Positions 9,313-45,614 of a DNA stretch of 64,000 nt are shown one piece after another. Under the pieces are notes generated by a model. The model did no database searches. It was not told where the DNA came from and saw only the letters and a list, made by a program, of their open reading frames with translations. This DNA comes from an uncultured Gammaproteobacteria bacterium. Lineage in GTDB: Bacteria > Patescibacteriota > Microgenomatia > 2-02-FULL-39-11. Position 1 is the first letter of the stretch, and every line of letters starts with the position of its first letter. Location of the stretch: positions 48,308 to 112,307 of the forward strand of contig CAYIFB010000001.1 of the NCBI GenBank assembly GCA_964362665.1, written 5' to 3'. The position numbers were made by a program, and so were the translations under genes.

Positions 9313-9846
9313 ATGCGAAAATTTCACATAAAAAAATTTGGCTTTTCCATGATAGAACTTTTGGTGGTGGTGGCTCTGATTGGAATTATCGGCACGATTA
9401 CCACGCAGGTTTTTATCCTGGCACTCCAGACACAGGTGAAAAGTGAAATCATCAAGGAGGTCAAACAAAACGGCGATTACGCTTTGACGGTGATGGAATC
9501 TATGGTCAGAAATTCTACAGACATTCTTGCCGCTTCCTGTAACGAGACATCTCAACAGCTTTCCATCCAGAATGCCGACGGATATACTACAATCTTTGAT
9601 TGTACAGATGCCAATATATCATCCATCAGCGGTAGTCTGGAGCCACTTCCTACCGGGGCTCCTTTAACTAATTCCAAGGTAAAAGTTTCTGCTTGCACGT
9701 TTCGAGTCATCTGCCCTACCCCGCCGATCAACCCCAAATATGTCTATATCGAGTATACCGTCAGCCAGGCAGGGGCAGGGACAGGCCCCAAGGATACATC
9801 AAGCCTGAATTACCAGACCACGGTTTCTCTGAGGAATTATCAGTAG
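9313..9846 (+). CDS. Type IV pilin / pseudopilin (last gene of the array)
   Basis: KKFGFSMIELLVVVALIGIIGTI prepilin motif. Its last 102 nt are duplicated downstream at 10786-10887. Confidence 0.8.
   Translation: MRKFHIKKFGFSMIELLVVVALIGIIGTITTQVFILALQTQVKSEIIKEVKQNGDYALTVMESMVRNSTDILAASCNETSQQLSIQNADGYTTIFDCTDANISSISGSLEPLPTGAPLTNSKVKVSACTFRVICPTPPINPKYVYIEYTVSQAGAGTGPKDTSSLNYQTTVSLRNYQ
9744..9845 (+). repeat. Left copy of a perfect 102-bp direct repeat (3' end of the pilin gene)
   Basis: The identical 102-nt string ctatatcgagtataccgtcagccagg…gaggaattatcagta recurs at 10786-10887. The copies differ only at the next base (TAG vs TAA stop). Confidence 0.9.
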
Positions 9847-9848
9847 AA

Positions 9849-10565
9849 TTATTTCGAGACCTTTTTTTTGCCAAGTACTGCTGCATTTTTACGATAAAAT
9901 TGTTTCAAGTGATCGAGGGTGAGAGGTATAATCATTTTTGGCAGTTCCTTAAAAGTTTCGACAGTAAGATAGTCTGCAGATAGTATCCATTGGTTCGTTT
10001 CAAGCCGGAATTTAATTCTGCACCCTTCCATCAGATCCCAGACAGTAAATTTTTTCAGTAAAAAATAATAATCAACAAAATCTTTTACTGTTGCTCGTTG
10101 TTGAATAGTTGCAAATTTATTAATCGCGATATCAAGTAAACTATCAATAGCAAGTCCATTATAATCAATACCTTTCTCAACACGTTTTCCATAGTATTTA
10201 GAAAAATCGACTTTTAATTCGTATTGCGGAGAGAATCGCAGCAAACATTGATATAAAGAATCAAATGGAGATTTAACTTTAAATGTAAAATGATGCTTTT
10301 CACCTTGTTTTATTAACCACTGGAAAATAAATGGAATATCCAATGGTTCTTCTGTGAAGAAATCAAGATCTTCTGAATAGCGGTGATGAAGATAAAATGC
10401 ACTTAACGCAGTTCCTCCGGTAAAATAAAATTTTTTCCGGAAATACCCATCTCTGCTTACTTCATCCAATATGTTTTTTTGATATTTGGTGAGGATTTGT
10501 ACTTTCCCCATATTAAAAGTTCCAATAATAGTTTGCACATAGGAAATAGATGAAGTTTGCCCCAA
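9849..10565 (-). CDS. Nucleotidyltransferase, AbiEii/AbiGii-toxin-like (DUF1814-type). The real start is probably the internal ATG at 10511.
   Basis: Motif FYFTGGTALSAFYLHHRYSEDLDFF (GGTAL…DLD nucleotidyltransferase signature). Paralog of the 33343-33990 gene. Confidence 0.6.
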   Translation of the reverse strand: MGQTSSISYVQTIIGTFNMGKVQILTKYQKNILDEVSRDGYFRKKFYFTGGTALSAFYLHHRYSEDLDFFTEEPLDIPFIFQWLIKQGEKHHFTFKVKSPFDSLYQCLLRFSPQYELKVDFSKYYGKRVEKGIDYNGLAIDSLLDIAINKFATIQQRATVKDFVDYYFLLKKFTVWDLMEGCRIKFRLETNQWILSADYLTVETFKELPKMIIPLTLDHLKQFYRKNAAVLGKKKVSK

Positions 10566-10741
10566 TTTTTTTTAACCTTAGATAAGGAAATTTTCTCTCC
10601 CTTATCCGGGCCATAGTTTATCATCCTTTCCAGGATAAGCAGTCGGCCGCTGGCTGTCTTTTTCAGCTCCTTTATATCGTAATCCCAGATTAGTGCCATA
10701 TAGTGAAATTGTATCAGAGATGTGCTGTTTTGACAACTCAA
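10457..10741 (-). CDS. Small partner protein of the nucleotidyltransferase module (putative antitoxin-like). The likely start is the internal ATG at ~10699.
   Basis: Homologous to the 33149-33412 ORF (LIWDYDIKELKK / LNWNVDEKRFIK; RMINYG / QLINYG; KVKKNWGKL / EVKKAWPMI; LLELLIWGKY / LIEYILWEKLY). Overlaps the downstream nucleotidyltransferase gene in a different frame. Confidence 0.5.
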   Translation of the reverse strand: MSCQNSTSLIQFHYMALIWDYDIKELKKTASGRLLILERMINYGPDKGEKISLSKVKKNWGKLHLFPMCKLLLELLIWGKYKSSPNIKKTYWMK

Positions 10742-10785
10742 ATAATCTAACTTAATCTTCTACCTTGTAGAAGTTTAAAATGTTT

Positions 10786-10887
10786 CTATATCGAGTATAC
10801 CGTCAGCCAGGCAGGGGCAGGGACAGGCCCCAAGGATACATCAAGCCTGAATTACCAGACCACGGTTTCTCTGAGGAATTATCAGTA
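10786..10887 (+). repeat. Right copy of the 102-bp direct repeat. It encodes an orphan pilin C-terminal fragment (…YIEYTVSQAGAGTGPKDTSSLNYQTTVSLRNYQ*).
   Basis: Perfect identity to 9744-9845. Confidence 0.9.
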
Positions 10888-30660: not shown

Positions 30661-32010
30661 ATGCAAAAGAAGTATTTTTATCTCGGGCTGATTTTATTTT
30701 TTTTAATTACCTACCTCTCTCCCGGCAAAGTCATCTATTTCAGTGCGTATCTCGTCAGCACTTTTTTTTTCTATTTGGCGACCAAAAAAATTACCGAGAG
30801 TTTGATTTATTCTCTGATATTATCTTTATTTTTTGATTCTAGTATTGGAGCGAGTCTGTTTGCTATGCAGCCTCCCGAATGGAATTTGGGATCGGGTTAT
30901 GCGATTACACCGACTACATTAATATTACTCTCATTAATACCTTTTTCATTTAACAAAACATTCAGTAAGTTAAAAGCGCCGGATATAATAATTGCGATAT
31001 TTTATTGTATTAGTGTTTTTAATGTTTTCCTATTCCCCTATCCCAATTCCTTTTTCGGTTTAATCGGAATTAGTGAGTTTGTACTTTTATATTATATTTT
31101 AAGGATACATGTGAAAATTGAGCAGTTTGATTTTATAAAAATTATCCTTCTTAGTCTTTTGTGTTTTCAGATAACGATTGCAACAATACAGATTGTCAGA
31201 GGTACTTCCGCCGGATTTTTAGCTGAATCATCAAATCTAGAGCGCCCATACGGATATACGGCCAGCGAAGATGTAAATATTTTCCGTGTACCGGGAACCT
31301 TCGGACATCCGAATTTTCTGGCTTCATTTCTTCTGTTGGGAGTTTCATTTGTATTATTTAGTTCCCCTAGTAGTATTTTATATCTAGGATTGGGTGCATT
31401 AGATTTGGTGGTATTAATCTTTACTTCCAGCCGTGCAGCCTGGTTTATCTTTATGCTTATTATTGCTTTTTGGATTTGGTATCAGTTAAAAATTCTAAAA
31501 AAATCGGATAAAATAAGAACCACTTTAACTATATTTATTTTAATTATTGTTTTATTAATTCCTTTTATTATTACCCGCCTCAACACATTACCGCAGGCAT
31601 TTGATCCAAATGGGTCTGTAGATGTGCGCTATCAACTTAATAATGAAGCAATTAACATCATTTCCAAAAATCCAATAACCGGTGTCGGATTAAATAGAGC
31701 GATAGAATTTTACAGTAATTTTTTTTCGCCGGATGCCCTTCTTAGTATTATTGATGGTAGTTTTTATAAAATACATAATACTATTTTGGAAATTAGCACG
31801 GAGATAGGGGTTTTTGGAGGAATTATATTTTTAGCATTTTTCTTTACCATTTTTAAAACCGGGCTGAAATATATTCATGAAAAAAATAATTTTAAAATAG
31901 CTGCAACGATGGGACTTTTTGGAGTATTTTGTATTTCACTTTTTAATCCTTTCTTTCACACCCCACAAATGCGCTATCTTTTCCTCCTCTCCGCGATGAT
32001 TCTGGCGTGA
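30661..32010 (+). CDS. O-antigen ligase/polymerase family membrane protein (Wzy_C-like)
   Basis: About 10 TM helices with a large periplasmic loop (…RVPGTFGHPNFLASFLLLG…) typical of the O-antigen ligase family. Its last ~70 nt are re-used downstream in two partial copies. Confidence 0.6.
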   Translation: MQKKYFYLGLILFFLITYLSPGKVIYFSAYLVSTFFFYLATKKITESLIYSLILSLFFDSSIGASLFAMQPPEWNLGSGYAITPTTLILLSLIPFSFNKTFSKLKAPDIIIAIFYCISVFNVFLFPYPNSFFGLIGISEFVLLYYILRIHVKIEQFDFIKIILLSLLCFQITIATIQIVRGTSAGFLAESSNLERPYGYTASEDVNIFRVPGTFGHPNFLASFLLLGVSFVLFSSPSSILYLGLGALDLVVLIFTSSRAAWFIFMLIIAFWIWYQLKILKKSDKIRTTLTIFILIIVLLIPFIITRLNTLPQAFDPNGSVDVRYQLNNEAINIISKNPITGVGLNRAIEFYSNFFSPDALLSIIDGSFYKIHNTILEISTEIGVFGGIIFLAFFFTIFKTGLKYIHEKNNFKIAATMGLFGVFCISLFNPFFHTPQMRYLFLLSAMILA

Positions 32011-32048
32011 TAGAAAAAACTAGTTATTTATGGTAAACTATTTTAAAC

Positions 32049-32318
32049 ATGAAGATAGTAAAAAAGGTATTTGAATACGAGTTACCCATAAAAGTCCAGA
32101 AAGAAAAAGACGGTTATATTGCCACTTGTCCGATCTGGAATGCTTGTTATGTTCAAGGAGATACCATTGATGAGGTAACGGCAGAAATTACCACAGTTGC
32201 CCAGGTGTTAATCGATATTTATAAAGAGGAAAATTTAGCTATTCCCCTAAAAAAGGTAAATGAACAATCCGTAAAAGAAAAATTCTCTTTCACCCTACCA
32301 GTGCTCGTATCTGCATGA
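32049..32318 (+). CDS. hicB: HicB-family antitoxin (UPF0150, RNase-H-like fold)
   Basis: EYELPIKVQKEKDGYIATCPIWNACYVQGDTIDEVTAEITTVAQVLIDIY matches HicB. Confidence 0.7.
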   Translation: MKIVKKVFEYELPIKVQKEKDGYIATCPIWNACYVQGDTIDEVTAEITTVAQVLIDIYKEENLAIPLKKVNEQSVKEKFSFTLPVLVSA

Positions 32319-32533
32319 AGATTCCACCTCTTTCCTATAGGGACGTAATACACAAAGCAAGAAAAGCAGGGTTCGTATTCAGAAGAGCAACTGGCGGGAC
32401 TCATGAAATTTGGTGGAATGAGAAGAAAAGGAAAACCGCAGTTATTCCTCACCATCATGAAATCCGTCCCGGAACCATTAGAAGTATTATCAAACAACTG
32501 GGGATAACCGATAAAGAATTCTTAAAATTATGA
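32315..32533 (+). CDS. hicA: HicA-family mRNA interferase toxin
   Basis: GFVFRRATGGTHEIWWNEKKRKTAVIPHHHEIRPGTIRSIIKQLGI matches HicA. ATGA overlap with hicB. Confidence 0.7.
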   Translation: MKIPPLSYRDVIHKARKAGFVFRRATGGTHEIWWNEKKRKTAVIPHHHEIRPGTIRSIIKQLGITDKEFLKL

Positions 32534-32574
32534 GAAATTCATATCCCTTCTTGCTGATCAACCAAATGAGGTAC

Positions 32575-32606
32575 TTTTTCCTCCTCTCCGCGATGATTCT
32601 GGCGTG
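32575..32606 (+). repeat. Second copy (3' portion, 32 nt identical) of the Wzy-like gene 3' end. A diverged upstream part begins at ~32538.
   Basis: ttttcctcctctccgcgatgattctggcgtga is identical to 31979-32010. Confidence 0.85.
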
Positions 32607-32608
32607 AA

Positions 32609-33019
32609 TTGATATGTTTTGAAGTAGTTGATTTAACTTATTTCACATGCCAGAATATACTTATGATAACAAAAAATGATCTAGGACAATTAAGGAAAGG
32701 TTTAGGGAAAGAAATTGGTGATTCGGCAAATAAACTGAAAGAAGAATTAAAAGCGGAAATCAATGCTTCAGCAAAAAGTCTCAGAAAAGAATTCAAAGAG
32801 GATATCGAAACCGCAGTAGTTCAAGTTATTAATGCAGTTATCAAACACACTGCCTCAAAAGAGGAGTTAAAGAGAGTTAAGGGAGAATTGAGTGAAAAGA
32901 TTGATACTATAAAATCAGAATTAAGTTCAGAAATAAAAGCCGATACTCCTACCCCGCAGGAATTTACAAGTCACGAAAAGAGAATAAGTAAATTGGAATC
33001 TGCTGTGTTTCCTTCTTAA
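32609..33019 (+). CDS. Hypothetical coiled-coil protein. The probable start is the internal ATG at ~32663.
   Basis: Lys/Glu-rich heptad-like sequence. No recognisable domain. Bounded by copies 2 and 3 of the Wzy 3'-end repeat. Confidence 0.35.
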   Translation: MICFEVVDLTYFTCQNILMITKNDLGQLRKGLGKEIGDSANKLKEELKAEINASAKSLRKEFKEDIETAVVQVINAVIKHTASKEELKRVKGELSEKIDTIKSELSSEIKADTPTPQEFTSHEKRISKLESAVFPS

Positions 33020-33066
33020 ATCCTTCTTTCACACCCCACAAATGCGCTATCTTTTCCTCCTCTCCA
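33019..33066 (+). repeat. Third copy (5' portion, ~47 nt with 1 indel) of the Wzy-like gene 3' end
   Basis: aatccttctttcacaccccacaaatgcgctatcttttcctcctctcc matches 31948-31995. Confidence 0.85.
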
Positions 33067-33148
33067 CTCTTATCTTAAGCCAGGAATGTACATTACCAGT
33101 ACGAACGTATAGTCATTTACCGGGAGAAAGTGATATACTTGGCTAATT

Positions 33149-33412
33149 ATGCTCAACTGGAATGTTGATGAGAAAAGGTTTATAAAAGAAGACCCGGAGG
33201 GGTATAAACGCTGGAGGATCGAACAACTGATAAATTACGGTCTGGATGGAGAAAAACTGGACAAGGATGAGGTAAAAAAAGCCTGGCCCATGATAAAAGA
33301 GAACATTGATCCGTATAAGCGCAGGCTTATAGAATATATCTTATGGGAAAAACTATACTTACTCCCACTCAACGGAAATTTCTGGAGTGCATCCAGAATT
33401 ACGAAGAGATAA
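33149..33412 (+). CDS. Small partner protein of the nucleotidyltransferase module (putative antitoxin-like). Paralog of 10457-10741.
   Basis: See the alignment under the 10457-10741 feature. It overlaps the downstream gene by 70 nt in a different frame, as in the first copy. Confidence 0.5.
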   Translation: MLNWNVDEKRFIKEDPEGYKRWRIEQLINYGLDGEKLDKDEVKKAWPMIKENIDPYKRRLIEYILWEKLYLLPLNGNFWSASRITKR

Positions 33413-33990
33413 CCCGCTGGTTTTATCTGACCGGTGGAACTGCTCTTTCGGAAGATATTGATCTGTTTTCTACAAGTGAAGTAGATGATAAGACTATTGA
33501 TAAATTTTTGGATGATATTCGTCCACAACTGCAAATTACTTCAATAAAAAAAGACCATATTTCAGGATTGTTCTTATATAAATTAACTTTTTCAAACGGA
33601 GAAACATTGAAAGTTGATTTTAATGAATATGCATTTGAACCAATTGAAAAAAGTACTAAAAATTTCGGGAAATTACAGGTAGACAGTTTCTACGATATAG
33701 CAGTAAATAAAGCCTATACCATATCGGGACGCTTTAAATCTCGTGATTTTATCGATCTCTATTTTATCCTCATTCGAGAGGAATTCTCTTTTGAACAAAT
33801 TCTTTCGCGTGTACCAGATAAATTTGGAGTGCAGATCGATTCAGTATTTTATGCAAGCCAACTTCTTCGGGCAGGTGATTTGCCAAAAGATTATCCCCCT
33901 ATGCTTGTCCCTTTTGAATTTGATGATATGGTGAAGTTTTTTGTGAAAGAAGCAAAACGATTGGGAAAAAAGGCTTTTAAGAACCCTTGA
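33343..33990 (+). CDS. Nucleotidyltransferase, AbiEii/AbiGii-toxin-like. Paralog of 9849-10565.
   Basis: WFYLTGGTALSEDIDLFS nucleotidyltransferase motif. Similar length and architecture to the first copy. Confidence 0.6.
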   Translation: MGKTILTPTQRKFLECIQNYEEITRWFYLTGGTALSEDIDLFSTSEVDDKTIDKFLDDIRPQLQITSIKKDHISGLFLYKLTFSNGETLKVDFNEYAFEPIEKSTKNFGKLQVDSFYDIAVNKAYTISGRFKSRDFIDLYFILIREEFSFEQILSRVPDKFGVQIDSVFYASQLLRAGDLPKDYPPMLVPFEFDDMVKFFVKEAKRLGKKAFKNP

Positions 33991-34014
33991 TTTCCGATCT
34001 TATTATATTTATAC
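33986..34014 (+). promoter_or_regulatory. Sigma70-like promoter candidate (TTGATT-17-TATACT) for the cassette-1 exported protein and peptide
   Basis: Read from the sequence immediately after the nucleotidyltransferase stop. The downstream ATG is at 34029. Confidence 0.3.
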
Positions 34015-34532
34015 TGAAGTTAGCGACTATGTATCGAACCCTAAAAATTCTATTTGTAATTTTGTTGGTTCTGACGATTACAGAAGCAGGATATTATATT
34101 TACGTATTAAAATATCCTATTAAACCAGCCCAAAATAACCCCTCATTAGCTCCAAGTATATCTTCCGATCAAAAAATTGACAGGAGTGCATATCTTTTTG
34201 ACCAGATTACAGCCTCTGATCCTTATCAGTTCGTAAAACACTTCGGTATGAATGATAATCAGAATTTATATTTAATTCTTGAGCAAAAAGGAATTGCACA
34301 GATAGATAAATCCGATGACGGTAAAGACATATATCTCACCATACAAAACGATCAGCATAAAAAAATCGTAAGCATTAATATAGTCAATTCCCTGAAAATT
34401 ACGAAGATAGTAAAGGGTGAAAAAACTCCGATTAGCAAGGACCAAATTAAAACCGGAGACAATATTCTTTATACCCTGAAAGGTGATTTAGTTGACCAGA
34501 AAAAAAGCAGTGGAGAAATTACAATCTTATGA
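33987..34532 (+). CDS. Cassette 1: membrane-anchored/exported protein. The probable start is the ATG at 34029 (MYRTLKILF…).
   Basis: N-terminal TM/signal anchor LKILFVILLVLTITEAGYYIYVL, then PIKPAQNNPSLAPSISSDQKI. The first ~50 aa are near-identical, at DNA level too, to the 36317 paralog. The C-terminal domains differ. Confidence 0.5.
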   Translation: MISDLIIFILKLATMYRTLKILFVILLVLTITEAGYYIYVLKYPIKPAQNNPSLAPSISSDQKIDRSAYLFDQITASDPYQFVKHFGMNDNQNLYLILEQKGIAQIDKSDDGKDIYLTIQNDQHKKIVSINIVNSLKITKIVKGEKTPISKDQIKTGDNILYTLKGDLVDQKKSSGEITIL

Positions 34533-34729
34533 GAAAAAATCCCTTTGCTCCTTATTGTAAGCCCAAAATTAATACGAAAAAGATCAACTTTCTTGTTATG
34601 TTTGGGCATTCATTTCCTGATGAGAACGGTTATCTAGCACAAGTTTGTGATTGTGGAGCGCCATGCTACGGCAATGTTATAGGGAGACCCTGTTATTGTC
34701 TGAATGGGACGGGGGGATGTTCTAGCTAG
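34529..34729 (+). CDS. Cassette 1: Cys-rich small peptide (candidate precursor or secreted disulfide-rich peptide), translationally coupled (ATGA) to the upstream gene
   Basis: 66 aa. Leader-like N-terminus KPKINTKKINFLVMF shared with the 36879 paralog. Core VCDCGAPCYGNVIGRPCYCLNGTGGCSS has 6 Cys, is Gly-rich and ends in C-terminal Ser-Ser. Confidence 0.5.
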   Translation: MRKNPFAPYCKPKINTKKINFLVMFGHSFPDENGYLAQVCDCGAPCYGNVIGRPCYCLNGTGGCSS

Positions 34730-34731
34730 GT

Positions 34732-35547
34732 CTAAGCACTGTTGTTTATCTTAAGTAATTCGCATATCTTTTCTTCATTTTTGGCAAAATAAAGAAGATA
34801 AAACCTCGGATTAGACTTGACGAAATTCATAATCGTCTTGATCTGACTTCTCATATCTTTTTCAAGACTCCATGTTTGGGCTGAAATTAGAGTGATAATT
34901 TTATTATTATTTTTCAACTGTATCAACCGGCAATCTTTTGCTTTACGCAGAAAATAAATGCTTTCAATAGGATATCGTTTAAAAGTTTTTTTGATCCATT
35001 TGTACTTTTCCACCACCGGTGATTGATAAAAATAGAAACTATTATTTTCCTTAATGATAATACCGCTTTCATCAACAAGGGGGATCGACTGTCTTCTCGT
35101 CAGATTTAAGATGGTCGATTTGCCGGCTCCGGAAGGGCCGACAAACACATGTGCTTTTCCGTCAATTTCTACAGCTGAACAGTGAAGAAAGAAACCATTA
35201 TTCTTTAAAAGAGCATTCTGAACGACGCGAAGTAAAAGCGTGATGAAGTGATTGATACTGATATGAAGATAGGTGAAAACCTTATTATTCTTCACATGAT
35301 AAAAAGCGAGAGTGAAATAAGGCAGTTTTAGCTTTTTTTGAAACACGTAAGGGGCAGAAGGTAAAAAGTTTATTTCTGTGAGGCATTTTTTGCCTCTTTG
35401 ACCTTTTACAATAAAACCCGCATAAATATTGTTAATTTTTTCCCGGATATTATTTACCGGATTTTTACCCTGCGTCGGGGCAAACTTCAGTTTGATGAGA
35501 AAACCTGCAATGTAAAAATACAAAACATTTTTTTTCATATACTTCAA
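34732..35547 (-). CDS. HPr-kinase-C-terminal-domain-like P-loop kinase (HprK-related / lasso-peptide-kinase-like)
   Basis: FFLHCSAVEIDGKAHVFVGPSGAGKSTILNL resembles the HprK active-site P-loop (G-x-SG-x-GKS). Convergent with, and 2 nt from, the peptide gene. Confidence 0.6.
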   Translation of the reverse strand: MKYMKKNVLYFYIAGFLIKLKFAPTQGKNPVNNIREKINNIYAGFIVKGQRGKKCLTEINFLPSAPYVFQKKLKLPYFTLAFYHVKNNKVFTYLHISINHFITLLLRVVQNALLKNNGFFLHCSAVEIDGKAHVFVGPSGAGKSTILNLTRRQSIPLVDESGIIIKENNSFYFYQSPVVEKYKWIKKTFKRYPIESIYFLRKAKDCRLIQLKNNNKIITLISAQTWSLEKDMRSQIKTIMNFVKSNPRFYLLYFAKNEEKICELLKINNSA

Positions 35548-35745
35548 GATTGAGAAGATATAAAAAATACAGTATTATCCTCTTGATATATGAATAAAAT
35601 CATCAGGATGATTAGATTTAAGCGTAAATTCTGTATTAAAGCAACTGGTAACAGCATGCTGCCTCTTCTTTTCTCGGGAGACGTATTATACCTAAAAAAA
35701 TTCACTTAAAGACGTCTGAAAAAACCTATATTCCCCTTTTTCTTT

Positions 35746-36228
35746 TTATATAATATTTAAGTCATCACCCAGCGGATGGTATTCGTCTTTGAGTAAATTT
35801 AAAATAGTGGTTTTTCCTGCACCTGAATTACCCAAGAAAACATAAGCTTTATGATTGATACATACTGAAGATGCATGCAGAAGAAATCCTCCTTCTTTTG
35901 CCAAAATGTCTTCGATAGCGTCGCGAAAAAGCAGGTTAAACTCCCCCAGATTCACGTGATAGTAAATTTCGCGATTATTGGAATCTATTTTTCTGCATGC
36001 CTTAAGGTAAATAAATTCATTTTCCCGGTAAAAGATACTGGGTTCACGAAAATCCACAAAGTGGATGATATGTAGAGGATTTTTTTTAGATATCGAAAAA
36101 TTCTTCAAATTAAAGATGACGTTTTCGATAAATTTCTCCCGATGCAGGATAAAAATGCTTTCATGAAACCTGAATTCCAGCACCATCCCTGCAATTTTGA
36201 AAAAATATGAAGAAGTCCCCTTGTTCAT
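35746..36228 (-). pseudogene. Truncated HprK-like kinase paralog (P-loop present, C-terminal ~110 aa missing or frameshifted)
   Basis: GFLLHASSVCINHKAYVFLGNSGAGKTTILNL, then a stop after …PLGDDLNII. A shifted frame just downstream translates …GEYRFFQTS…, which resembles the …YYGFQSP… block of the full-length paralogs. Confidence 0.5.
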
Positions 36229-36269
36229 AATTGTTAATGATACATCAAACGATAGTTTTTCATCAAAAC

Positions 36270-36298
36270 TTGACTAGAATCAATTTTGCGGATATTCT
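36270..36298 (+). promoter_or_regulatory. Sigma70-like promoter candidate (TTGACT-17-TATTCT) for cassette 2
   Basis: Read from the sequence. ATG at 36317. Confidence 0.3.
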
Positions 36299-36316
36299 TA
36301 ATAATAGATAGACATT

Positions 36317-36877
36317 ATGTATAAACTATTGAAAATATTATTCGTCTTATTATTGTTTCTGACGATTACAGAAGCAGGATATTATATTTACGTATTAAAA
36401 TATCCTATTAAACCAGCCCAAAATAACCCCTCATTAGCTCCAAGTATATCTTCCGATCAAAAAATTGAGCAGTTGAGAAGTAGCTCATCTATAGTTCCTC
36501 AAGTTACTCAAACAAACTTGCCAACCATACAGCCTCTCATTTCTTCTGATTCGATCACGTATCTTCAGAATATGAAGTTTGTGAAGAATAAAACAATTGT
36601 TGTCACCATCGAAGAGTCAGGATATGTTGATACTATTCAGCTTCAACCAAAGGGGAGTGCAACAGAATTAAAATTAGTTGATGAAAATGGAACCATAATA
36701 TCTGCAATTTCTAGGGATCTTGAATTTTGGAATAAAAATCTATTTAAAAAGATAGCAAACAGTGATGTTCCTTTCAGCATAACTGATCTTAAAAAAGGAG
36801 ACTTTATCATGCATTCATATCAAATGAACATAACAGACAATACAGATAATCATAAGTATGTAGTTATATCAAAATAA
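36317..36877 (+). CDS. Cassette 2: membrane-anchored/exported protein, paralog of 34029-34532
   Basis: MYKLLKILFVLLLFLTITEAGYYIYVLKYPIKPAQNNPSLAPSISSDQKI… The stretch 36360-36471 is ~100% identical in DNA to 34069-34180, then diverges. Confidence 0.5.
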   Translation: MYKLLKILFVLLLFLTITEAGYYIYVLKYPIKPAQNNPSLAPSISSDQKIEQLRSSSSIVPQVTQTNLPTIQPLISSDSITYLQNMKFVKNKTIVVTIEESGYVDTIQLQPKGSATELKLVDENGTIISAISRDLEFWNKNLFKKIANSDVPFSITDLKKGDFIMHSYQMNITDNTDNHKYVVISK

Positions 36878-36878
36878 T

Positions 36879-37085
36879 ATGAAGAATAAACAAATATATA
36901 AAAAGCCAGGTATCAAGGTTAAAAAAATTCATTTTAATGTTCTCTTTACCAATTTTAACGATAATTCTTTACTAGCACTAGTAGGACCGGGTCAACTATG
37001 TTGTGGAAATCCTGAACTCTATTGTCCTAGTTCCTGTAGTGGTGGTTGTAGTGTTTGTCCACAAGATGGGTACTGTGCATGCTAG
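36879..37085 (+). CDS. Cassette 2: Cys-rich small peptide, paralog of 34529-34729
   Basis: 68 aa. Leader KKPGIKVKKIHFNVLFTNF. Core GQLCCGNPELYCPSSCSGGCSVCPQDGYCAC has 8 Cys. Its start is 2 nt after the upstream stop. Confidence 0.5.
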   Translation: MKNKQIYKKPGIKVKKIHFNVLFTNFNDNSLLALVGPGQLCCGNPELYCPSSCSGGCSVCPQDGYCAC

Positions 37086-37900
37086 TTTTTAACCCTCTTT
37101 CCCATTAGAGTCACGAGCTTGTTTCCCTTATTAAATGAGAGAGAATAAAAATGATTGTGTCTTTGAATAAATGCAAATGCATTTTTTGTCGGCGGTTTCG
37201 TATGAGGGTCAAAAGTGAGAAGCTGTGCGGATAGAAGTGTTATTATTCTGGTAAGATCTTTGATCTTTGTTGTCCGGTAAAATTTTGCTTTGCGTAAAAA
37301 AAATATTCTTCCGACGAGATAATGCTGTTGAGTTTTTTTTATCCAGTCATTTTTTTCCCTGACTGGAGACTGGAATCCATAATATTTTTCTCCTATTTTT
37401 CTTACAATGAGGATGTCATCTGAAAAAGCCTGGAAACGCGGGTGTAAAAGTTTCATAGCCGTAGATTTTCCGCCCTCTGATTTAGCACAAAAGAGGAAAA
37501 GACTATTGTTTACGATTGATGCTGAAGTATGCAGAAGGAATCCGTCAGATCTTGAAGCAAGTGTTTGAAGTGCCGTAAGCAATATTAAATTAAACTGGTT
37601 TATGCTTATATGTTGGAATGAAAGAATTTTATATCTGTGTAATTTAAAAAAATGAAGCAGTCCTAAATTAGCATCTTTTGTTTTTCTCGTGAATATCGAT
37701 GGAAAATGTTGGAATAGATGAATGGTAAAATCTATTTTCGAAAGTTTCTTATTAGTTAGAAAAGCTGAATAGTGTTTTTTGATGTCATTCGATAGAGATT
37801 GATTTATCCAAGAGTCATGAATTTCTCTTTCTTGAGTAGGATTTAGAATAATCCTTATATTAAAGCCTCCGGTATAAAGGTCTATCCTCTGTGTTTTCAT
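37082..37900 (-). CDS. HPr-kinase-like P-loop kinase, paralog of 34732-35547
   Basis: GFLLHTSASIVNNSLFLFCAKSEGGKSTAMKLL. C-terminal block …YYGFQSPVREKNDWIKKT aligns with …FYFYQSPVVEKYKWIKKT. Convergent with the peptide gene, which overlaps its 3' end (ATGA-style). Confidence 0.6.
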   Translation of the reverse strand: MKTQRIDLYTGGFNIRIILNPTQEREIHDSWINQSLSNDIKKHYSAFLTNKKLSKIDFTIHLFQHFPSIFTRKTKDANLGLLHFFKLHRYKILSFQHISINQFNLILLTALQTLASRSDGFLLHTSASIVNNSLFLFCAKSEGGKSTAMKLLHPRFQAFSDDILIVRKIGEKYYGFQSPVREKNDWIKKTQQHYLVGRIFFLRKAKFYRTTKIKDLTRIITLLSAQLLTFDPHTKPPTKNAFAFIQRHNHFYSLSFNKGNKLVTLMGKRVKN

Positions 37901-39254
37901 GGATCGTATTATACCTCATACAACCCATTTTCTGATTCTGTTTCAGTGGTATACTTTCTCTGTTGTGACAGCGAACCATCTTCTTATTTTAAATAAGCTT
38001 CAGAAGAAACGGGCTTTCTGGCTTAAATGCGAGGGCATAAGCATGCTTCCGCTGCTTCGTCCCGGCGATATATTATTCTTTAAGAAAATCAAGTTTCATC
38101 AGACGAAGATAAATGAGATTATACTGGTAAAAAAGAGTAATAAAGAGATAGTCCATAGAGTTATTTATAAAAAAAACAATTATCTGGTTACTAAAGGTGA
38201 TCACAATCCTTTGTCAGACGGGAGGACAAATCCAAACGACGTTTTCGCGAAGGTAATCGCAGTAAAGAGAAGTAATAATAAATTCGATTTAGAAAGTTTA
38301 TATCTTTTCCAGTCAACTCTTTACTTTCAGGAAATAGTGAAGGTTAATAAAGCTTTCAGGAAAGAAAAAATTGCTTTTGTCTTTCTGAAAGGCCTTCCTG
38401 TACATCTATTTTATGAAAAAAAACATCCCCGTCGAATATATGCTGACAGCGATATTCTTATTGATCAGACTGATTACGAGAAAGTTGAAAAGGTTTTTAA
38501 GAGGAATGGATTTAAAAAAGTTGATGCTTCCTATTCTAACCTCCATAAACTATTAAAGGATAAACCCACGGAAGTAAGTTTTGTGAAAAAAGTAAATAAT
38601 TTTCCAGTAGTCTTTGACATCCATTTTGAGCCGGTATTTCTAATGAATCAGCTTGGGAAGCTTGATGCTTTGTATCCTGAGAAATTCATGAGGCAGTTGA
38701 CTAGTGATTTCTTACAGACGAAACTAGCAATAAAAGTACAAGGAGAACAATTCTTTATACTTGATATTTCCTACTTAATACTTTACTTAGCTTTGCATTT
38801 TTTCCATCATAACTATCGGGGAATATTCCGGTTACATTTTTTAGATCAGGTGATAAGATTTCGCGCCAGAGAATTAGATTTGGATAAATTGATATCGGAT
38901 ATTAATAAATATCAGGTGCAAAACTTTGTTTATCCGGTATTTTGGTTTTTACAGAAATACTACTCGACTCCGGGAGCCAGTCTGGTATTAAAAAGTATAA
39001 ATATCAAGTCTAAAGAGCTAAAATATATAAAAGAAAATATCTTAAATATCAATATTTTTGATGATGAGTCGAGGGTTCAGGCGGGAATTGCCAGATTTAA
39101 AAATATTTTTCAGCTCTCCCCTTCCCCGTTTTGGAAGAAACTGACACTTATCTTTAATCTGCAGATAATTTACAGCGTTTTCTGGGTTGGGTATTTGAAG
39201 ATTAAAAATTATCACAATTCCCGGAATTTTAATCCGTTTAATTCCGGACAATAA
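37899..39254 (+). CDS. Fusion protein: N-terminal SipW/Sec11-type (S26B) signal-peptidase-like domain plus C-terminal NTP_transf_5-like 'uncharacterised nucleotidyltransferase' domain
   Basis: Peptidase boxes CEGISMLPLLRPGDILFF (Ser), EIVHRVIY (His, ER-type) and TKGDHNPLSDGR. C-terminal domain IAFVFLKGLPVHLFYEKKHPRRIYADSDILIDQTDYEKVEKVFKRNGFKK resembles PF14907-type nucleotidyltransferases seen near lasso/HprK-related loci. The tail reads through a hairpin repeat. Confidence 0.5.
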   Translation: MDRIIPHTTHFLILFQWYTFSVVTANHLLILNKLQKKRAFWLKCEGISMLPLLRPGDILFFKKIKFHQTKINEIILVKKSNKEIVHRVIYKKNNYLVTKGDHNPLSDGRTNPNDVFAKVIAVKRSNNKFDLESLYLFQSTLYFQEIVKVNKAFRKEKIAFVFLKGLPVHLFYEKKHPRRIYADSDILIDQTDYEKVEKVFKRNGFKKVDASYSNLHKLLKDKPTEVSFVKKVNNFPVVFDIHFEPVFLMNQLGKLDALYPEKFMRQLTSDFLQTKLAIKVQGEQFFILDISYLILYLALHFFHHNYRGIFRLHFLDQVIRFRARELDLDKLISDINKYQVQNFVYPVFWFLQKYYSTPGASLVLKSINIKSKELKYIKENILNINIFDDESRVQAGIARFKNIFQLSPSPFWKKLTLIFNLQIIYSVFWVGYLKIKNYHNSRNFNPFNSGQ

Positions 39255-39298
39255 TATATAAAATTCCCGGAATTTAATCCGTTTAATTCCGGGAATTA
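39216..39298. terminator. Two tandem copies of a ~33-bp palindromic element (ccggaatt-N-aattccgg) between convergent genes. Candidate bidirectional terminator or regulatory hairpins.
   Basis: aattcccggaattttaatccgtttaattccgga (39216-39248) and aattcccggaatttaatccgtttaattccgggaatt (39263-39298). Both convergent ORFs end in …NSRN encoded by the palindrome. Confidence 0.4.
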
Positions 39299-39573
39299 AC
39301 TATAATTTTTTTCGCGAAAAGTTCTTTTTCCAGACCCAAGTAATCCTTTTGTGCTCGAATATTGGAGATTTTATATTTTTTTATCATCAGTTCGATTATC
39401 TCCTCCTTACTTAAACCCTTCTTGATTTTGTCAAAGATAAAAGAGGCTGTTTGGTTGAAGGTATAGAGCTGAGATTTCTCACCGTCAAAAATCGTAGTTT
39501 TATTTCCCAGTTTCTGGACGATAAAACCTTTGTTTATTTTATATTTCACCGTTGCGGATTTGGATGTTTTCAT
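39283..39573 (-). CDS. PqqD-family protein (RiPP recognition element / peptide chaperone-like)
   Basis: KGFIVQKLGNKTTIFDGEKSQLYTFNQTASFIFDKIKKGLSKEEIIELMIKKYKISNIRAQKDYLGLEKELFAKKII fits the PqqD pattern (hxxhxxgxxxhlxxxtgxhxxLNxtaxxIWxLldG…eihxxlxxxYdh…dvxxfhxxLxxxxhI). Confidence 0.6.
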   Translation of the reverse strand: MKTSKSATVKYKINKGFIVQKLGNKTTIFDGEKSQLYTFNQTASFIFDKIKKGLSKEEIIELMIKKYKISNIRAQKDYLGLEKELFAKKIIVNSRN

Positions 39574-42251: not shown

Positions 42252-45200
42252 ATGACGCATAAAATAATTTCTGCGTTGGTTTTTGTATCGGTAATATTCC
42301 TCCTATTCTTTATCTCTATAAAAACATCGCCATTAAGCGAAGTATCTGCTGCTACCTACTGTCCAGCCTTGGTATCATATTATGTTGGTCCGACGGCAGT
42401 AGCACCGGCAGCCAGGATATCAGTCACCTGTAATTATGGAGTGCAATTGTCGTGTATTGGAGCTAAAAGCGCGCCAACTGACTATACAAATTGCAATTGG
42501 CTTGGTTTTGGGGGAAATAATAATGCGCGGTTTTCTTGTAAAGTTCCGGCTACAGGAGGATTATATACGAATAAATGCACACTATCCAGTGGTGGCGGTG
42601 ATGATTGCTGTGTCCAAAGTGATCCAGCTGGTTCTTATGAAGTTTGCTCGGAAACTGCCCCTTCAGGACTGAATGTAACTAACTTAACCAATAATTCGGC
42701 TACTCTCAACTGGACTCCGGGGACAGCTATTGCGGGATCGGTACAGAAGTTACGGGTGGGGGCAAGTGCAAATGAGGTAAATACCGGGTGTAATGGCGGA
42801 TACGATCCTCCACTTACTCCTGCGCCGACCTGTGTTATAAAATCAGATTTACCCTTGAATACTTCATCACAGAATACCGGAGCTATTTTGAATTCTAATC
42901 AACTATATTACTGGAGAGTAGTAACTTTTCAGAGCGCGGCATGTTACGTTGACAACAGACCTCCAGATCAAAGCTTTACGACGCTTTTAAATCCGACAAA
43001 TACTCCCATTCTAATACCTACGAAAACACCTACGCCGACGGTAACTCCTACTTCTACGCCTACTAATACTCCTACTTCTACTCCTACTAATACTCCTACT
43101 TCTACTCCAACCGCAACTCCTACCGTAACCCTTACCCCAACTCCTATTTTTACCTGCGGATTGACAGCCTGTCCTGACTTGACTTGTTCCAATCCAATAC
43201 CGGCAAATTGTACTATCTGTACTGATTTTCTTTGTACTCAGCCTACTATAGCGCCGACAAATACTCCTACCGTTACTCCAACAGTTACTAATACACCCAC
43301 CTACACTCCTACTCCTAGCAATACACCTACATCTACACCCACATTAACACCAACCATTACACCTACAAATACGCCGACAGTGACTCCTACGATTACCCTT
43401 ACACCGACCGTAACCCTTACCCCAACTCCTGTAGGAGGAAATTACTGTGGAGCAGGTTGTCCGGATTTGGACTGTGCCAATCCGACTCCAGCTGATGGAT
43501 GTTCCACCTGTACTGATTTTGTTTGTAGCTTGCAGCCAACTTCGACTCCTACTTTAACACCGACATTAACACCGACTTTTACCCCTTCTCCTACTCCGAC
43601 GAGTACACCTACTGATACTCCTACTCCGACTCTAACGGAGACACCTACTCCAACACCCACAGTTACCTTGACTCCGACACCCACTTTTTATAATGTTTAT
43701 GGCTGGATTTATACGGAAACAAATAATACTGTAATTAGAAATGAAGAACAAAACGAAGGATTAATTCCTAATTATACGGTGGACCTGACGGGAGATCAGA
43801 CTCTTTCCACAACTTCTCAAGGCTCTCCTATTGCCGGATTTTTAGCAAATTATATCCTAACGCCTCTTTATAATGGCATATTTCAGCTGGAAATGGTTAT
43901 CACTCCGACAGGCTATACACTTTATAAAGGACCTCCGGGAGCCACTCCTTCTCCTTATACCAACCCTAAAGTCGTTATTTTAGCCGGAGGAGACGCTATT
44001 GGTGATTTTCCGTTTATTACAATTACTCCTTACATAAGTCCAACAGCTACTCCGACTGTCACGCCGTCTTCTACCCCGCCTCCAATTTCGCCAACGCCTA
44101 CTTCGATCTGGACTCCTACACCGTCTGTCGGACCAGGAACACCAACACCTACAAACTACGTTTGTCAGACACTGCCGACACCCATTCTGAACGCGCCGGC
44201 AGAAAATCTATGCACCAATATCAAACCGACTTTCTCAGCATATGTCCTGGATCCGAACAACGATAATGTCTGGGGTCATTTCTATAGTACTGATACTATA
44301 TCGTTTGATAGGATCGGTTCAGTGGTAAATCCAAGCGGAGGTAATAGTACCTGGATACCTGACGGCTCTGTTCTTAACAGCTCGGGAGCTTATATGTGGA
44401 CGGCTTATACGGAAACATCTTCCTGTCCGCGCTCATTTGATGCTCCAGCTAATCGTTTAAACATGGATTATACGGCTCCTCCGAAACCTCAATCGCCAAG
44501 CTGTAGCCTGACTAGTCAAAATTATATTACCGGCCAATGTTCTTTTCATTGTAGTTGGAGTGCTGATCCGGAACCGACTCCGCAATCCTGCAGTGATACC
44601 AATGATTATCACCCTGTTTTCAGGACTGATCCGGGACCAGGAGCTTGGGATCCGGGTTGGATTGGTAACAGCTTATCTACTGATGTGACAACAGAGGTGG
44701 CCCAGGAATTGTATGCCAAAGTTACGGCAAGGGACGGTCTTGGTAACACTTCAGAAACTTCAGATGAGTCGGTAAGTGCGGTTTGCCCTGAAATTATTTA
44801 TTCCGTCTCTCCAACTCCCGGTGGTCCGACAGCAACTCCTACTGGAGGGGTTATTCCAACAGTCACTCTTACACCCACAGCCACTCCAACTCCAACCCCG
44901 GGTATTTGGACCCAGGTTTTCGGCGGAGATATTTATGAGCCGTCTCTTCTGCAAAGAAATGTACCTTCAGGCAAATACTATTTGAATAATATAGATGTTG
45001 TCCCAACTCCGGTGAGCGCCGGAATACTTTGGTCGACTTCAGGAGCTGGGGATTTCGGAAATGGCTTCTCATCTCCTACAAACTGGCAGGTAGGATCAAC
45101 TCTTTCCAATACTTTTAATTTTTCTTATTATTGGGAAGCACTCAAGAATAATCCCGCTGCAGTAAACGTGAATAGTACGGTGATTCTAAATCCTACCGCC

Positions 45201-45614
45201 GCAATTAATCTGTATAACGTCGGTGGTTCAGTTACCTTAGAGGCTAATAGTTTAATCTTACCGGCATCAAAAGTGGCCATCTTTTTGATTACCGGCACTT
45301 TGGAGATTAAAAATAATTTTACTATAGCCAGCGACGAATCAGTCGTTTTTGTCGTCAGCGGCAATATTGAGGTTGACCCTAGTGTGACCAGAATAGACGG
45401 GCTTTTTATGGACAGCGGATCATTTACAGTTGCAGCCGGATCCGATCAGCTTGTGGTCAACGGTATGGTTTATACTACAAATATGAGTTTAAACAGAACT
45501 CTTCGAAGTTTTACCACACCTGCCTATAAATTTATCTATCAGCCGAAATATGTGATTACATTATTGCCATACCTGGGAAGATCACAGGTTAATTGGCAGG
45601 AGGCGGCGCCATGA
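42252..45614 (+). CDS. Large secreted surface protein: FN3-like region, long Pro/Thr (TPT) linkers, a twice-repeated 4-Cys module (C-x2-CPDL-x-C-x-NP-x-PA-x1-2-C-x2-CTDF-x-C) and a C-terminal beta-rich domain. Candidate pilus-associated adhesin.
   Basis: Signal peptide. [15 protein letters not shown] repeats. Modules [32 protein letters not shown] and [32 protein letters not shown]. Immediately followed by a PilX-like gene and pilMNO. Confidence 0.5.
43006..43690 (+). repeat. Low-complexity (ACN-CCN)n tracts encoding TPT linkers, interrupted by the two Cys modules (~43147-43245 and ~43441-43535)
   Basis: Read directly (actcctacttctacgcctactaatactcct…). The antisense ORFs listed in the track for this region are artefacts of the repeat. 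Confidence 0.7.

Follow-up and report, generated by a model that had tools for sequence, protein, structure and literature searches.

Toxin-antitoxin and AbiEii-type cassettes stacked between duplicated gene ends in a groundwater Patescibacteria genome, and a possible route for their accumulation

Little is understood of the movement of toxin-antitoxin and small defence modules outside plasmids, phages, transposons, and integrons, and the question is sharper in Patescibacteria, whose genomes are tiny and contain few mobile elements that can be recognised. Among known phenomena, the nearest is insertion with long target duplication, which was reportedly described for restriction-modification gene units by Nobusato et al. 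in 2000. Such units insert with target duplications of more than 30 bp, often over stop or start codons and mostly in naturally competent species, relatives retain empty sites, and the units are without mobility genes (PMC2853133). A review describes the phenomenon for restriction-modification systems only (PMC3874152). Our literature search returned no description of it that concerned toxin-antitoxin modules or Patescibacteria. In addition, single crossover of circles with partial homology yields duplications of 109-950 bp in E. coli (PMC3240628), and natural competence has been demonstrated in Saccharibacteria (PMC10633639). Here we describe a stretch of 64,000 nucleotides (nt), hereafter the window, in which the 3' end of a gene for a Wzy_C/O-antigen-ligase-like membrane protein (wzy) is present three times in a row with small cassettes. 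The record names the organism as an uncultured Gammaproteobacteria bacterium, whereas GTDB gives Patescibacteriota; Microgenomatia; 2-02-FULL-39-11 (assembly GCA_964362665.1, contig CAYIFB010000001.1, forward strand 48,308 to 112,307; window position 1 is its first letter). The source population is Hainich groundwater Patescibacteria, and relatives carry the label Candidatus Gottesmanbacteria.

That the end of wzy occurs three times had been proposed in a sequence-only reading of the window, and this was confirmed by a repeat finder and by self-BLAST, the proposed positions being right to within 1-8 nt. The repeat finder returned one three-member family, with 31946-32010 (unit 1, the working gene end) as reference, 32543-32607 (unit 2) at 82%, and 33019-33083 (unit 3) at 75%. 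Self-BLAST resolved this likeness into two perfect blocks: 31979-32010 equals 32576-32607 over 32 nt, the TGA stop included (100%, E 2e-10), and 31951-31992 equals 33024-33065 over 42 nt (100%, E 2.5e-16). Once one 1-nt deletion is allowed, units 1 and 3 match at 46 positions, with identity up to ..CTCTCC, and past this block the tail of unit 3 is diverged and allele-like (..LFLLSTLILS). Between units 1 and 2, all 12 mismatches lie in the first 33 of 65 positions and none in the last 32 (P = 9e-5). The two identity blocks overlap in the 14-nt TTTTCCTCCTCTCC. Unit 1 translates as PFFHTPQMRYLFLLSAMILA up to its stop, unit 2, in frame, as PFLLINQMRYFFLLSAMILA up to its stop, and unit 3 as FFHTPQMRYLFLLSTLILS; both relic units keep the reading frame and conserved residues. 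Moreover, the three units have a common left boundary in wzy (ATCC, to within 1-2 nt), and the stop codon closes both unit 1 and unit 2. Beyond the wzy units, short-range direct repeats in the 64 kb are limited to a pilin repeat, described below, and one pair of paralogous gene starts. An extension of unit 3 upstream into 32990-33018 (frame-shifted GICCVSFLNP vs GVFCISLFNP) was considered and rejected, the stretch being the native C-terminus of a coiled-coil protein and conserved in a distant relative, L004.

The differences between copies, pooled for the wzy array and a second array in locus L121, favour third codon positions (23/44, p = 0.007). Because the mismatches are block-wise, the frame is kept, and third codon positions are preferred, the orphan units resemble 3' ends of different wzy alleles that were joined at crossover points, rather than duplicates that decayed at random. 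The earlier idea of partial duplicates is modified by this comparison: the copies appear to be allele-like relics with block-wise identity, so that diverged donors or allele turnover would be involved.

The wzy array is reproduced in two other Hainich samples, on contigs of 33.6 kb (L001) and 2.1 kb (L002, covering copies 1 and 2), and mis-assembly is excluded for this array because these two further assemblies reproduce the locus at an identity of at least 99.95%. Both copies of the pilin repeat are confirmed in context by three more contigs (L114, L115, L116). One may argue that a metagenome assembler strung strain variants in series, or that the likeness arose by chance in AT-rich DNA, given that read coverage is low (about 3-5x, taken from contig names) and that assemblies often break at these repeats, those of the window's own loci ending inside them (L114-L116). 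However, three independent assemblies agree, the copies are non-identical and each has unique flanks, the wzy repeat blocks carry the E-values given above, and the same architecture occurs in contigs of several unrelated projects and sources; artefact or coincidence is thus extremely improbable. Exact-protein look-ups gave contigs of the same arrangement only, with no strain variant lacking the cassettes in the source population.

The pilin locus had been taken as a second case of a cassette entering a gene end, and here insertion with duplication of the 3' end is demonstrable. The repeat is 103 nt long and perfect (9743-9845 = 10785-10887, 100% by self-BLAST) and flanks an AbiEii-type cassette (Table 1). 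Empty sites are found in L117 (pilin 90% identical) and L119 (78%), which have a single target copy, no cassette, and the same downstream promoter and 1044-aa (amino acid) gene directly after the pilin stop. In L118 (pilin 82%) the same site holds a different, oppositely oriented cassette with no long repeat, composed of a DUF6922 gene and a part that by eye resembles the N-terminal portion of a nucleotidyltransferase (no family match). Furthermore, L123 carries, in an unrelated context, a cassette of the same lineage as that in the pilin locus (79% nt identity), and both its flanking repeat (32 nt) and its ends are different; one cassette lineage is present at two targets.

Furuta, Abe & Kobayashi 2010 define insertion with long target duplication by repeats of more than 30 bp derived from the target, an empty site in a relative, and an insert below 20 kb without integrase or transposase, and the pilin locus qualifies on these terms. 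Repeats reach 103 nt at pilin and 65 nt at wzy (perfect blocks of 32 and 42 nt), the inserts in the window are 0.4-0.95 kb without mobility genes, and the empty site is established at pilin (L117, L119), whereas cassette-free wzy relatives differ downstream. As in the published cases, an addiction-type unit is flanked by local target copies of variable length that often span stop or start codons, in hosts that are transformable or presumed so. In contrast to them, the cargo includes HicBA, AbiEii-type, PIN/Phd, and MNT/HepT modules as well as a coiled-coil gene, with no restriction-modification unit, the hosts belong to the Patescibacteria, arrays are stacked by reuse of the units, and the orphan copies appear to be allelic relics. 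The fresh pilin case fits a simple target duplication, and the restriction-modification precedent is described in such terms; by extension, the wzy array could have arisen by separate insertions, each with its own staggered-cut duplication of a target from the same genome, followed by neutral decay. This is quite improbable for the wzy array, where the block-wise mismatches are unlike uniform decay (0/32 vs 12/33), the frame is kept with a third-codon-position bias, and the unit boundaries are identical in all copies.

Table 1. Features of the wzy array and of the pilin locus, in window coordinates.
Feature	Position	Strand	Basis
Wzy_C/O-antigen-ligase-like membrane protein gene, 449 aa, intact anchor	30661..32010	+	Pfam Wzy_C, E 7e-19
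Repeat unit 1, working last 65 nt of wzy (ending ..NPFFHTPQMRYLFLLSAMILA and stop)	31946..32010	+	repeat finder, self-BLAST
Repeat unit 2, relic wzy 3' end, 65 nt, stop codon kept	32543..32607	+	repeat finder, self-BLAST
Repeat unit 3, relic wzy 3' end, stop position reads CAG	33020..33083	+	repeat finder, self-BLAST
HicB-HicA toxin-antitoxin cassette, directly after wzy stop codon (hicB 32049-32318, hicA 32315-32533)	32011..32542	+	Pfam
Coiled-coil gene segment, 412 nt (promoter-like site 32633-32661, open reading frame 32675-33019, 114 aa)	32608..33019	+	
AbiEii-type two-gene cassette, ~910 nt	33084..33995	+	Pfam PF08843, PADLOC AbiEii
Parts of this AbiEii cassette: promoter-like site, small open reading frame, nucleotidyltransferase	33110-33139, 33149-33412, 33343-33990	+	
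Pilin-gene 3' end, left copy of 103-nt direct repeat, junction inside stop codon (TA|G)	9743..9845	+	
Inserted AbiEii-type cassette, 939 nt (nucleotidyltransferase 9849-10565, small open reading frame 10457-10741)	9846..10784	-	Pfam, PADLOC AbiEii
Pilin 3' end, right copy, then native downstream sequence as in empty sites	10785..10887	+	

Flanking repeats are a wider feature of these cassettes. More than 3600 homologues of the nucleotidyltransferase were found at E <= 1e-5; the few named sources among them are all Patescibacteria-group lineages, and 80 AbiEii-homologue loci were retrieved for a repeat survey. Direct repeats surround the module in 17 of the 69 loci testable with a loose geometry. 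With a tight geometry (E<=1e-4) they do so in 10/54 AbiEii loci, compared with 3/221 control positions chosen at random within these loci (Fisher p = 7e-6), and two of the three control matches are cassettes with flanking repeats in their own right, one of the AbiEii type (L055) and the other an MNT plus NYN module (L059). The repeats, 18-110 nt long, are read as derived from the target because their sequence differs at every locus; examples are the RecG 3' end with its stop codon in L109, the 3' end of a dockerin protein gene in L097, and the sequence just after the phosphoenolpyruvate carboxylase gene in L044. Arrays of three copies that delimit two cassettes occur in L044 (DUF433/DUF5615 plus AbiE) and L056. 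In L121 (2545-4300), the first ~78 nt of a methyltransferase gene is present three times upstream of the intact gene; these copies all begin at the ATG, differ in an allele-like manner, and delimit ParE/PhdYeFM and PIN_3/PhdYeFM modules. The pattern extends to AbiEii-type and other toxin-antitoxin cassettes in general, which is broader than the sequence-only reading had proposed, but the specificity for 3' ends that it had assumed is lost: L121 is a mirror image on a gene 5' end, and other loci use intergenic sequence.

No dedicated machinery was found in the window, in agreement with the initial impression that integrase and attC are missing. All window open reading frames (ORFs) of at least 90 aa were scanned against Pfam or covered by precomputed annotations, and none belongs to an integrase, resolvase, or transposase family, Phage_integrase, intI, and Y1 transposase included. 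There is no attC-like palindrome or inverted repeat in or around the units, no terminal inverted repeat at the cassette ends, and no Rfam family at the units (one sub-threshold chance match). The cassettes encode two small proteins only, with neither an element-encoded recombinase nor an att core common to independent insertions. A cassette reaches from 25-80 nt upstream of the small ORF, with a TATAAT-like box, to 0-90 nt past the toxin stop, and neither conserved termini nor a junction motif was found. The profile of a DNA transposon is not seen either, as the window has no transposase, the cassettes have no terminal inverted repeats, and repeat length varies from 18 to 110 nt. Type IV pilus genes are encoded in the window.

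Alignment of the three copies had been suggested as a way to expose a core site; it yields the 14-nt overlap, but no motif common to other loci. The identity blocks switch exactly at this overlap, as expected for attL/attR hybrids, and together with the array architecture this would suit a tyrosine, serine, or Xer-type recombinase acting in trans and joining circular cassettes at the core, as integrons and 3'-end elements do; the recombinase search covered the 64-kb window only. We give this explanation little weight and hold it to be very improbable. No such enzyme was found in the 64 kb, the core, a run of pyrimidines, lacks dyad symmetry, no attC-like hairpin is present, the repeats at no fewer than 15 other loci have no common motif, the ends of one cassette lineage differ between loci, and no transfer RNA (tRNA) gene lies at the repeats. 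With regard to the last point, the L102 repeat had resembled a T-arm, yet ARAGORN finds no tRNA at any repeat.

Several observations were made in passing on the surveyed loci. An IS200-like Y1 transposase gene lies directly beside an AbiEii-type cassette in two unrelated loci (L035 3933-5762, L123 873-2632), and in L035 the flanking repeat holds a strong hairpin (CGGCCTTTTCGAGG..CCTCGAAAAGGCC) that occurs three times. A role for this transposase was set aside, as its family is not known to make target duplications and has no member in the window. A near-same repeat (..GGTTATAATTTTGTAAATGGTTCTCCGC..) surrounds AbiEii cassettes from different metagenomes in L078 (3944-3961/4864-4881) and L086 (4727-4762/5658-5693), probably as the same target site inherited in related genomes. 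Most contigs with AbiEii homologues are merely 1-3 kb, which hints that such cassettes commonly fragment metagenome assemblies.

The explanation that we favour, with moderate confidence, is that a founding illegitimate insertion duplicated the gene end, and that homologous recombination between the resulting units then added and exchanged cassettes. First, a self-contained module with promoter and toxin-antitoxin genes would have inserted at the wzy stop codon by illegitimate recombination, duplicating the last 65 nt of wzy, so that wzy remained whole, with an extra copy of its end behind the insert; the pilin locus, with its 103-nt perfect duplication, may represent this step in its fresh state. 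Second, with two 65-nt units present, ordinary homologous recombination between units could proceed by unequal crossing-over, by single-crossover integration of circles excised by unit-by-unit recombination, or by two-ended recombination of imported unit-flanked DNA, taken up probably by natural transformation. Modules would thereby be gained or exchanged, and the expressed wzy allele would be replaceable up to a crossover inside unit 1, so that the orphan units may preserve older or foreign gene-end alleles, unit 2 with a foreign 5' half and unit 3 with a foreign tail. Third, repeat-flanked inserts would be easily deleted, whereas addiction modules may persist since their loss kills the cell. 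Repeats might be seen around toxin-antitoxin modules because post-segregational killing plausibly retains such inserts. One founding duplication followed by recombination between units is proposed because the three copies have one left boundary, and here the earlier proposal is retained in part: cassettes do appear to have been added serially, but the common boundary argues against a new partial duplicate with each event. The favoured model accounts for the common unit boundaries, the hybrid copies, the missing recombinase, and the arrays.

The resemblance of the relics to diverged functional alleles would also be expected under one-sided (homology-facilitated illegitimate) recombination, a type of event documented in naturally transformable bacteria (PMC3240628). 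An imported, diverged wzy 3' part with its neighbouring cassette would displace the resident end, pairing homologously inside wzy and joining illegitimately ~65 nt before the resident stop, and the relic, followed by its former neighbour, would be left behind. Short microhomologies at the junction of the coiled-coil gene with unit 3 and at the right pilin junction would suit such joins, the L118 cassette without a long repeat could be a donor state, and a fourth copy is neither expected nor seen. Nevertheless, two independent illegitimate joins would be needed at the same wzy coordinate within 1-2 nt, and the same coincidence again for the three methyltransferase 5' copies in L121. Moreover, between relatives with both flanks in common, two-sided recombination should dominate and leave no repeat, and the usual reported outcome of one-sided events is deletion, not duplication. 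We therefore regard one-sided recombination as unlikely, if less so than separate insertions or a recombinase in trans.

A number of points weigh against founding duplication followed by recombination between units. Most AbiEii cassettes lack detectable repeats, which surround roughly a fifth to a quarter of them. At wzy, there is no syntenic empty site, the cassette-free relatives L003, L120, and L122 having different downstream genes, and L004-L008, which are distant wzy loci, have no relics in any of the five. No fourth unit right of the AbiEii module was reported by repeat finder or BLAST, and a candidate at 33993-34015, which both programs missed, was set aside as a weak resemblance only. 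Since the coiled-coil gene adjoins wzy in L004, the succession of unit 2, coiled-coil gene, and unit 3 could be a rearrangement of the locus, not the gain of a cassette. Finally, the founding insertion is itself an inferred step, no circular or excised cassette form was observed, and natural transformation is presumed in this lineage.

The genes between the units are as first described, namely HicB-HicA, a coiled-coil ORF, and a small ORF with a nucleotidyltransferase. The wzy copies do delimit HicBA and the coiled-coil ORF, but the third copy merely precedes the AbiEii module, whose right side is unclosed. For the first cassette, HicA_toxin matches at 59 bits (cut-off 27) and HicB_lk_antitox weakly at 19 bits, below its cut-off; hicB and hicA overlap by 4 nt, and the hicA stop lies 9 nt from unit 2. 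This pairing of a HicA domain with an adjacent HicB is consistent with a predicted HicAB type II toxin-antitoxin system.

The coiled-coil protein has no Pfam family above cut-off, gave no phage match by tBLASTn, and belongs to a rare family (22 representative clusters matched among 1.84 billion). Its ORF ends where unit 3 begins, at the stop codon. A homologue 45% identical lies directly upstream of wzy in the distant relative L004, with a similar, conserved upstream region that starts right after the preceding stop codon. Because the family is rare and adjoins wzy in L004, we treat this gene as a candidate wzy-linked gene caught in the array and not as a typical mobile cassette, in departure from the view that every segment is a cassette.

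Both nucleotidyltransferases of the window match Pfam PF08843 and PADLOC AbiEii and are classed as AbiEii toxins on that ground. In more than 50 loci, this nucleotidyltransferase is accompanied by homologues of the small ORF of the wzy-array cassette. The partner, a protein of 70-95 aa, does not match the AbiEi-type regulator antitoxin, and related partners match DUF6922. In the cassette farthest from wzy, the toxin (33343-33990) is probably decayed or inactivated because nine near-invariant residues (AEFYLHHRL in relatives), just before the catalytic S-E-D-x-D motif, are missing from it relative to all eight of its nearest homologues. An NCBIfam scan gave no matches, and GC (guanine-cytosine) content, tried as a sign of foreign origin, did not discriminate.

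Homologues of the Wzy_C protein are 88% identical (P0002) or, in Gottesmanbacteria, at most 45% identical. The proposed hotspot at this gene end is borne out by L121 (wzy 41% identical), which has the same peptide/ScmC cluster downstream and, in the interval, a 273-aa gene and different cassettes, the repeat-flanked MNT/HepT and MNT modules. Cassettes are absent from this flank in L120 and L003, and in L122 wzy directly abuts an NTP_transf_5 gene.

Other systems invite comparison. As in Campbell-type single-crossover integration of a circle, a segment is duplicated on both sides, copies are hybrid, and host recombination functions suffice. However, the homology here is very short (18-110 nt), and such a route alone fails to explain the first arrival at a new, unrelated target. 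Like an integron, the array is a linear row in which a repeated element divides small cassettes, most of them with a single function. Chromosomal integrons often carry toxin-antitoxin cassettes. In contrast to integrons, the window has no intI, attI, or attC hairpins, there is no core common to the loci, the cassettes come with promoter-like sites of their own, and what is repeated is the end of an adjacent gene of the housekeeping type. The loose likeness to integrons suggested at the outset is therefore kept for the architecture and dropped for the machinery; the resemblance is architectural only. At Rhs/CdiA polymorphic toxin loci, displaced gene ends pile up downstream, each with its partner gene, and record successive replacements. 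The displaced wzy ends downstream of the intact gene recall these orphan modules, but the relics are 21-codon membrane-tail fragments without a toxin domain, and the genes between them are autonomous toxin-antitoxin pairs, not immunity genes.

The data suggest that such modules behave as minimal mobile units, which appear to enter conserved gene ends without damage, mark their entry by a diagnostic duplication of that end, and may be stacked by host recombination alone. Tentatively, Patescibacteria may run an integrase-free counterpart of the integron, in which a duplicated gene end, 3' or 5', serves as a landing pad for homologous recombination; once DNA has been taken up, toxin-antitoxin or defence cassettes might be caught at this pad, piled up, and exchanged between diverged lineages, post-segregational killing might guard them against repeat-mediated deletion, and the orphan repeats might form a layered record of anchor alleles. 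Taken jointly, these propositions are a possibility that we hold with some doubt and would expect, on balance, to need revision. If true, a mode so far described for restriction-modification genes would extend to toxin-antitoxin pairs and be linked to natural transformation, a duplicated gene end would be a simple signature of recently gained cassettes in metagenomes, and the relic copies would be usable to date and trace allele replacement in surface-glycan genes.

The surroundings of the array offer some minor observations. The surface-glycan locus to which wzy belongs (14152-42208: glycosyltransferases, AsnB, wzy, phosphodiesterase/sulfatases, and a beta-helix protein) is strongly reshuffled relative to L004, L003, and L122; gene order in L004 is glycosyltransferase, coiled-coil gene, wzy, AsnB, and in L003 the beta-helix gene lies directly next to wzy. 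Two to three tandem paralogous clusters follow the wzy flank at 33987-39573, each with a ~180-aa membrane protein, a Cys-rich peptide of 66-68 aa, and a convergent ScmC-like P-loop protein (PF27840), and after them come genes for NTP_transf_5 and PqqD-like proteins; in L121, too, this module comes after the wzy flank. The whole looks like a locus for peptides of the RiPP (ribosomally synthesised and post-translationally modified peptide) type. The 5' parts of two otherwise diverged paralogous genes are identical over 112 nt (34069-34180 vs 36357-36468, 100%), suggesting that the duplicated clusters recently underwent gene conversion. Where the NTP_transf_5 and PqqD-like genes converge, 39205-39294 holds two tandem 45-nt hairpin-forming copies (CCCGGAATT..AATTCCGGG). 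Further downstream, 42252-45614 encodes a 1120-aa protein with long Pro/Thr-rich repeats of 12-nt period (42987-43688) and a weak ice-binding-like C-terminal domain, and its gene adjoins PilX-, PilM-, and PilO-like genes.

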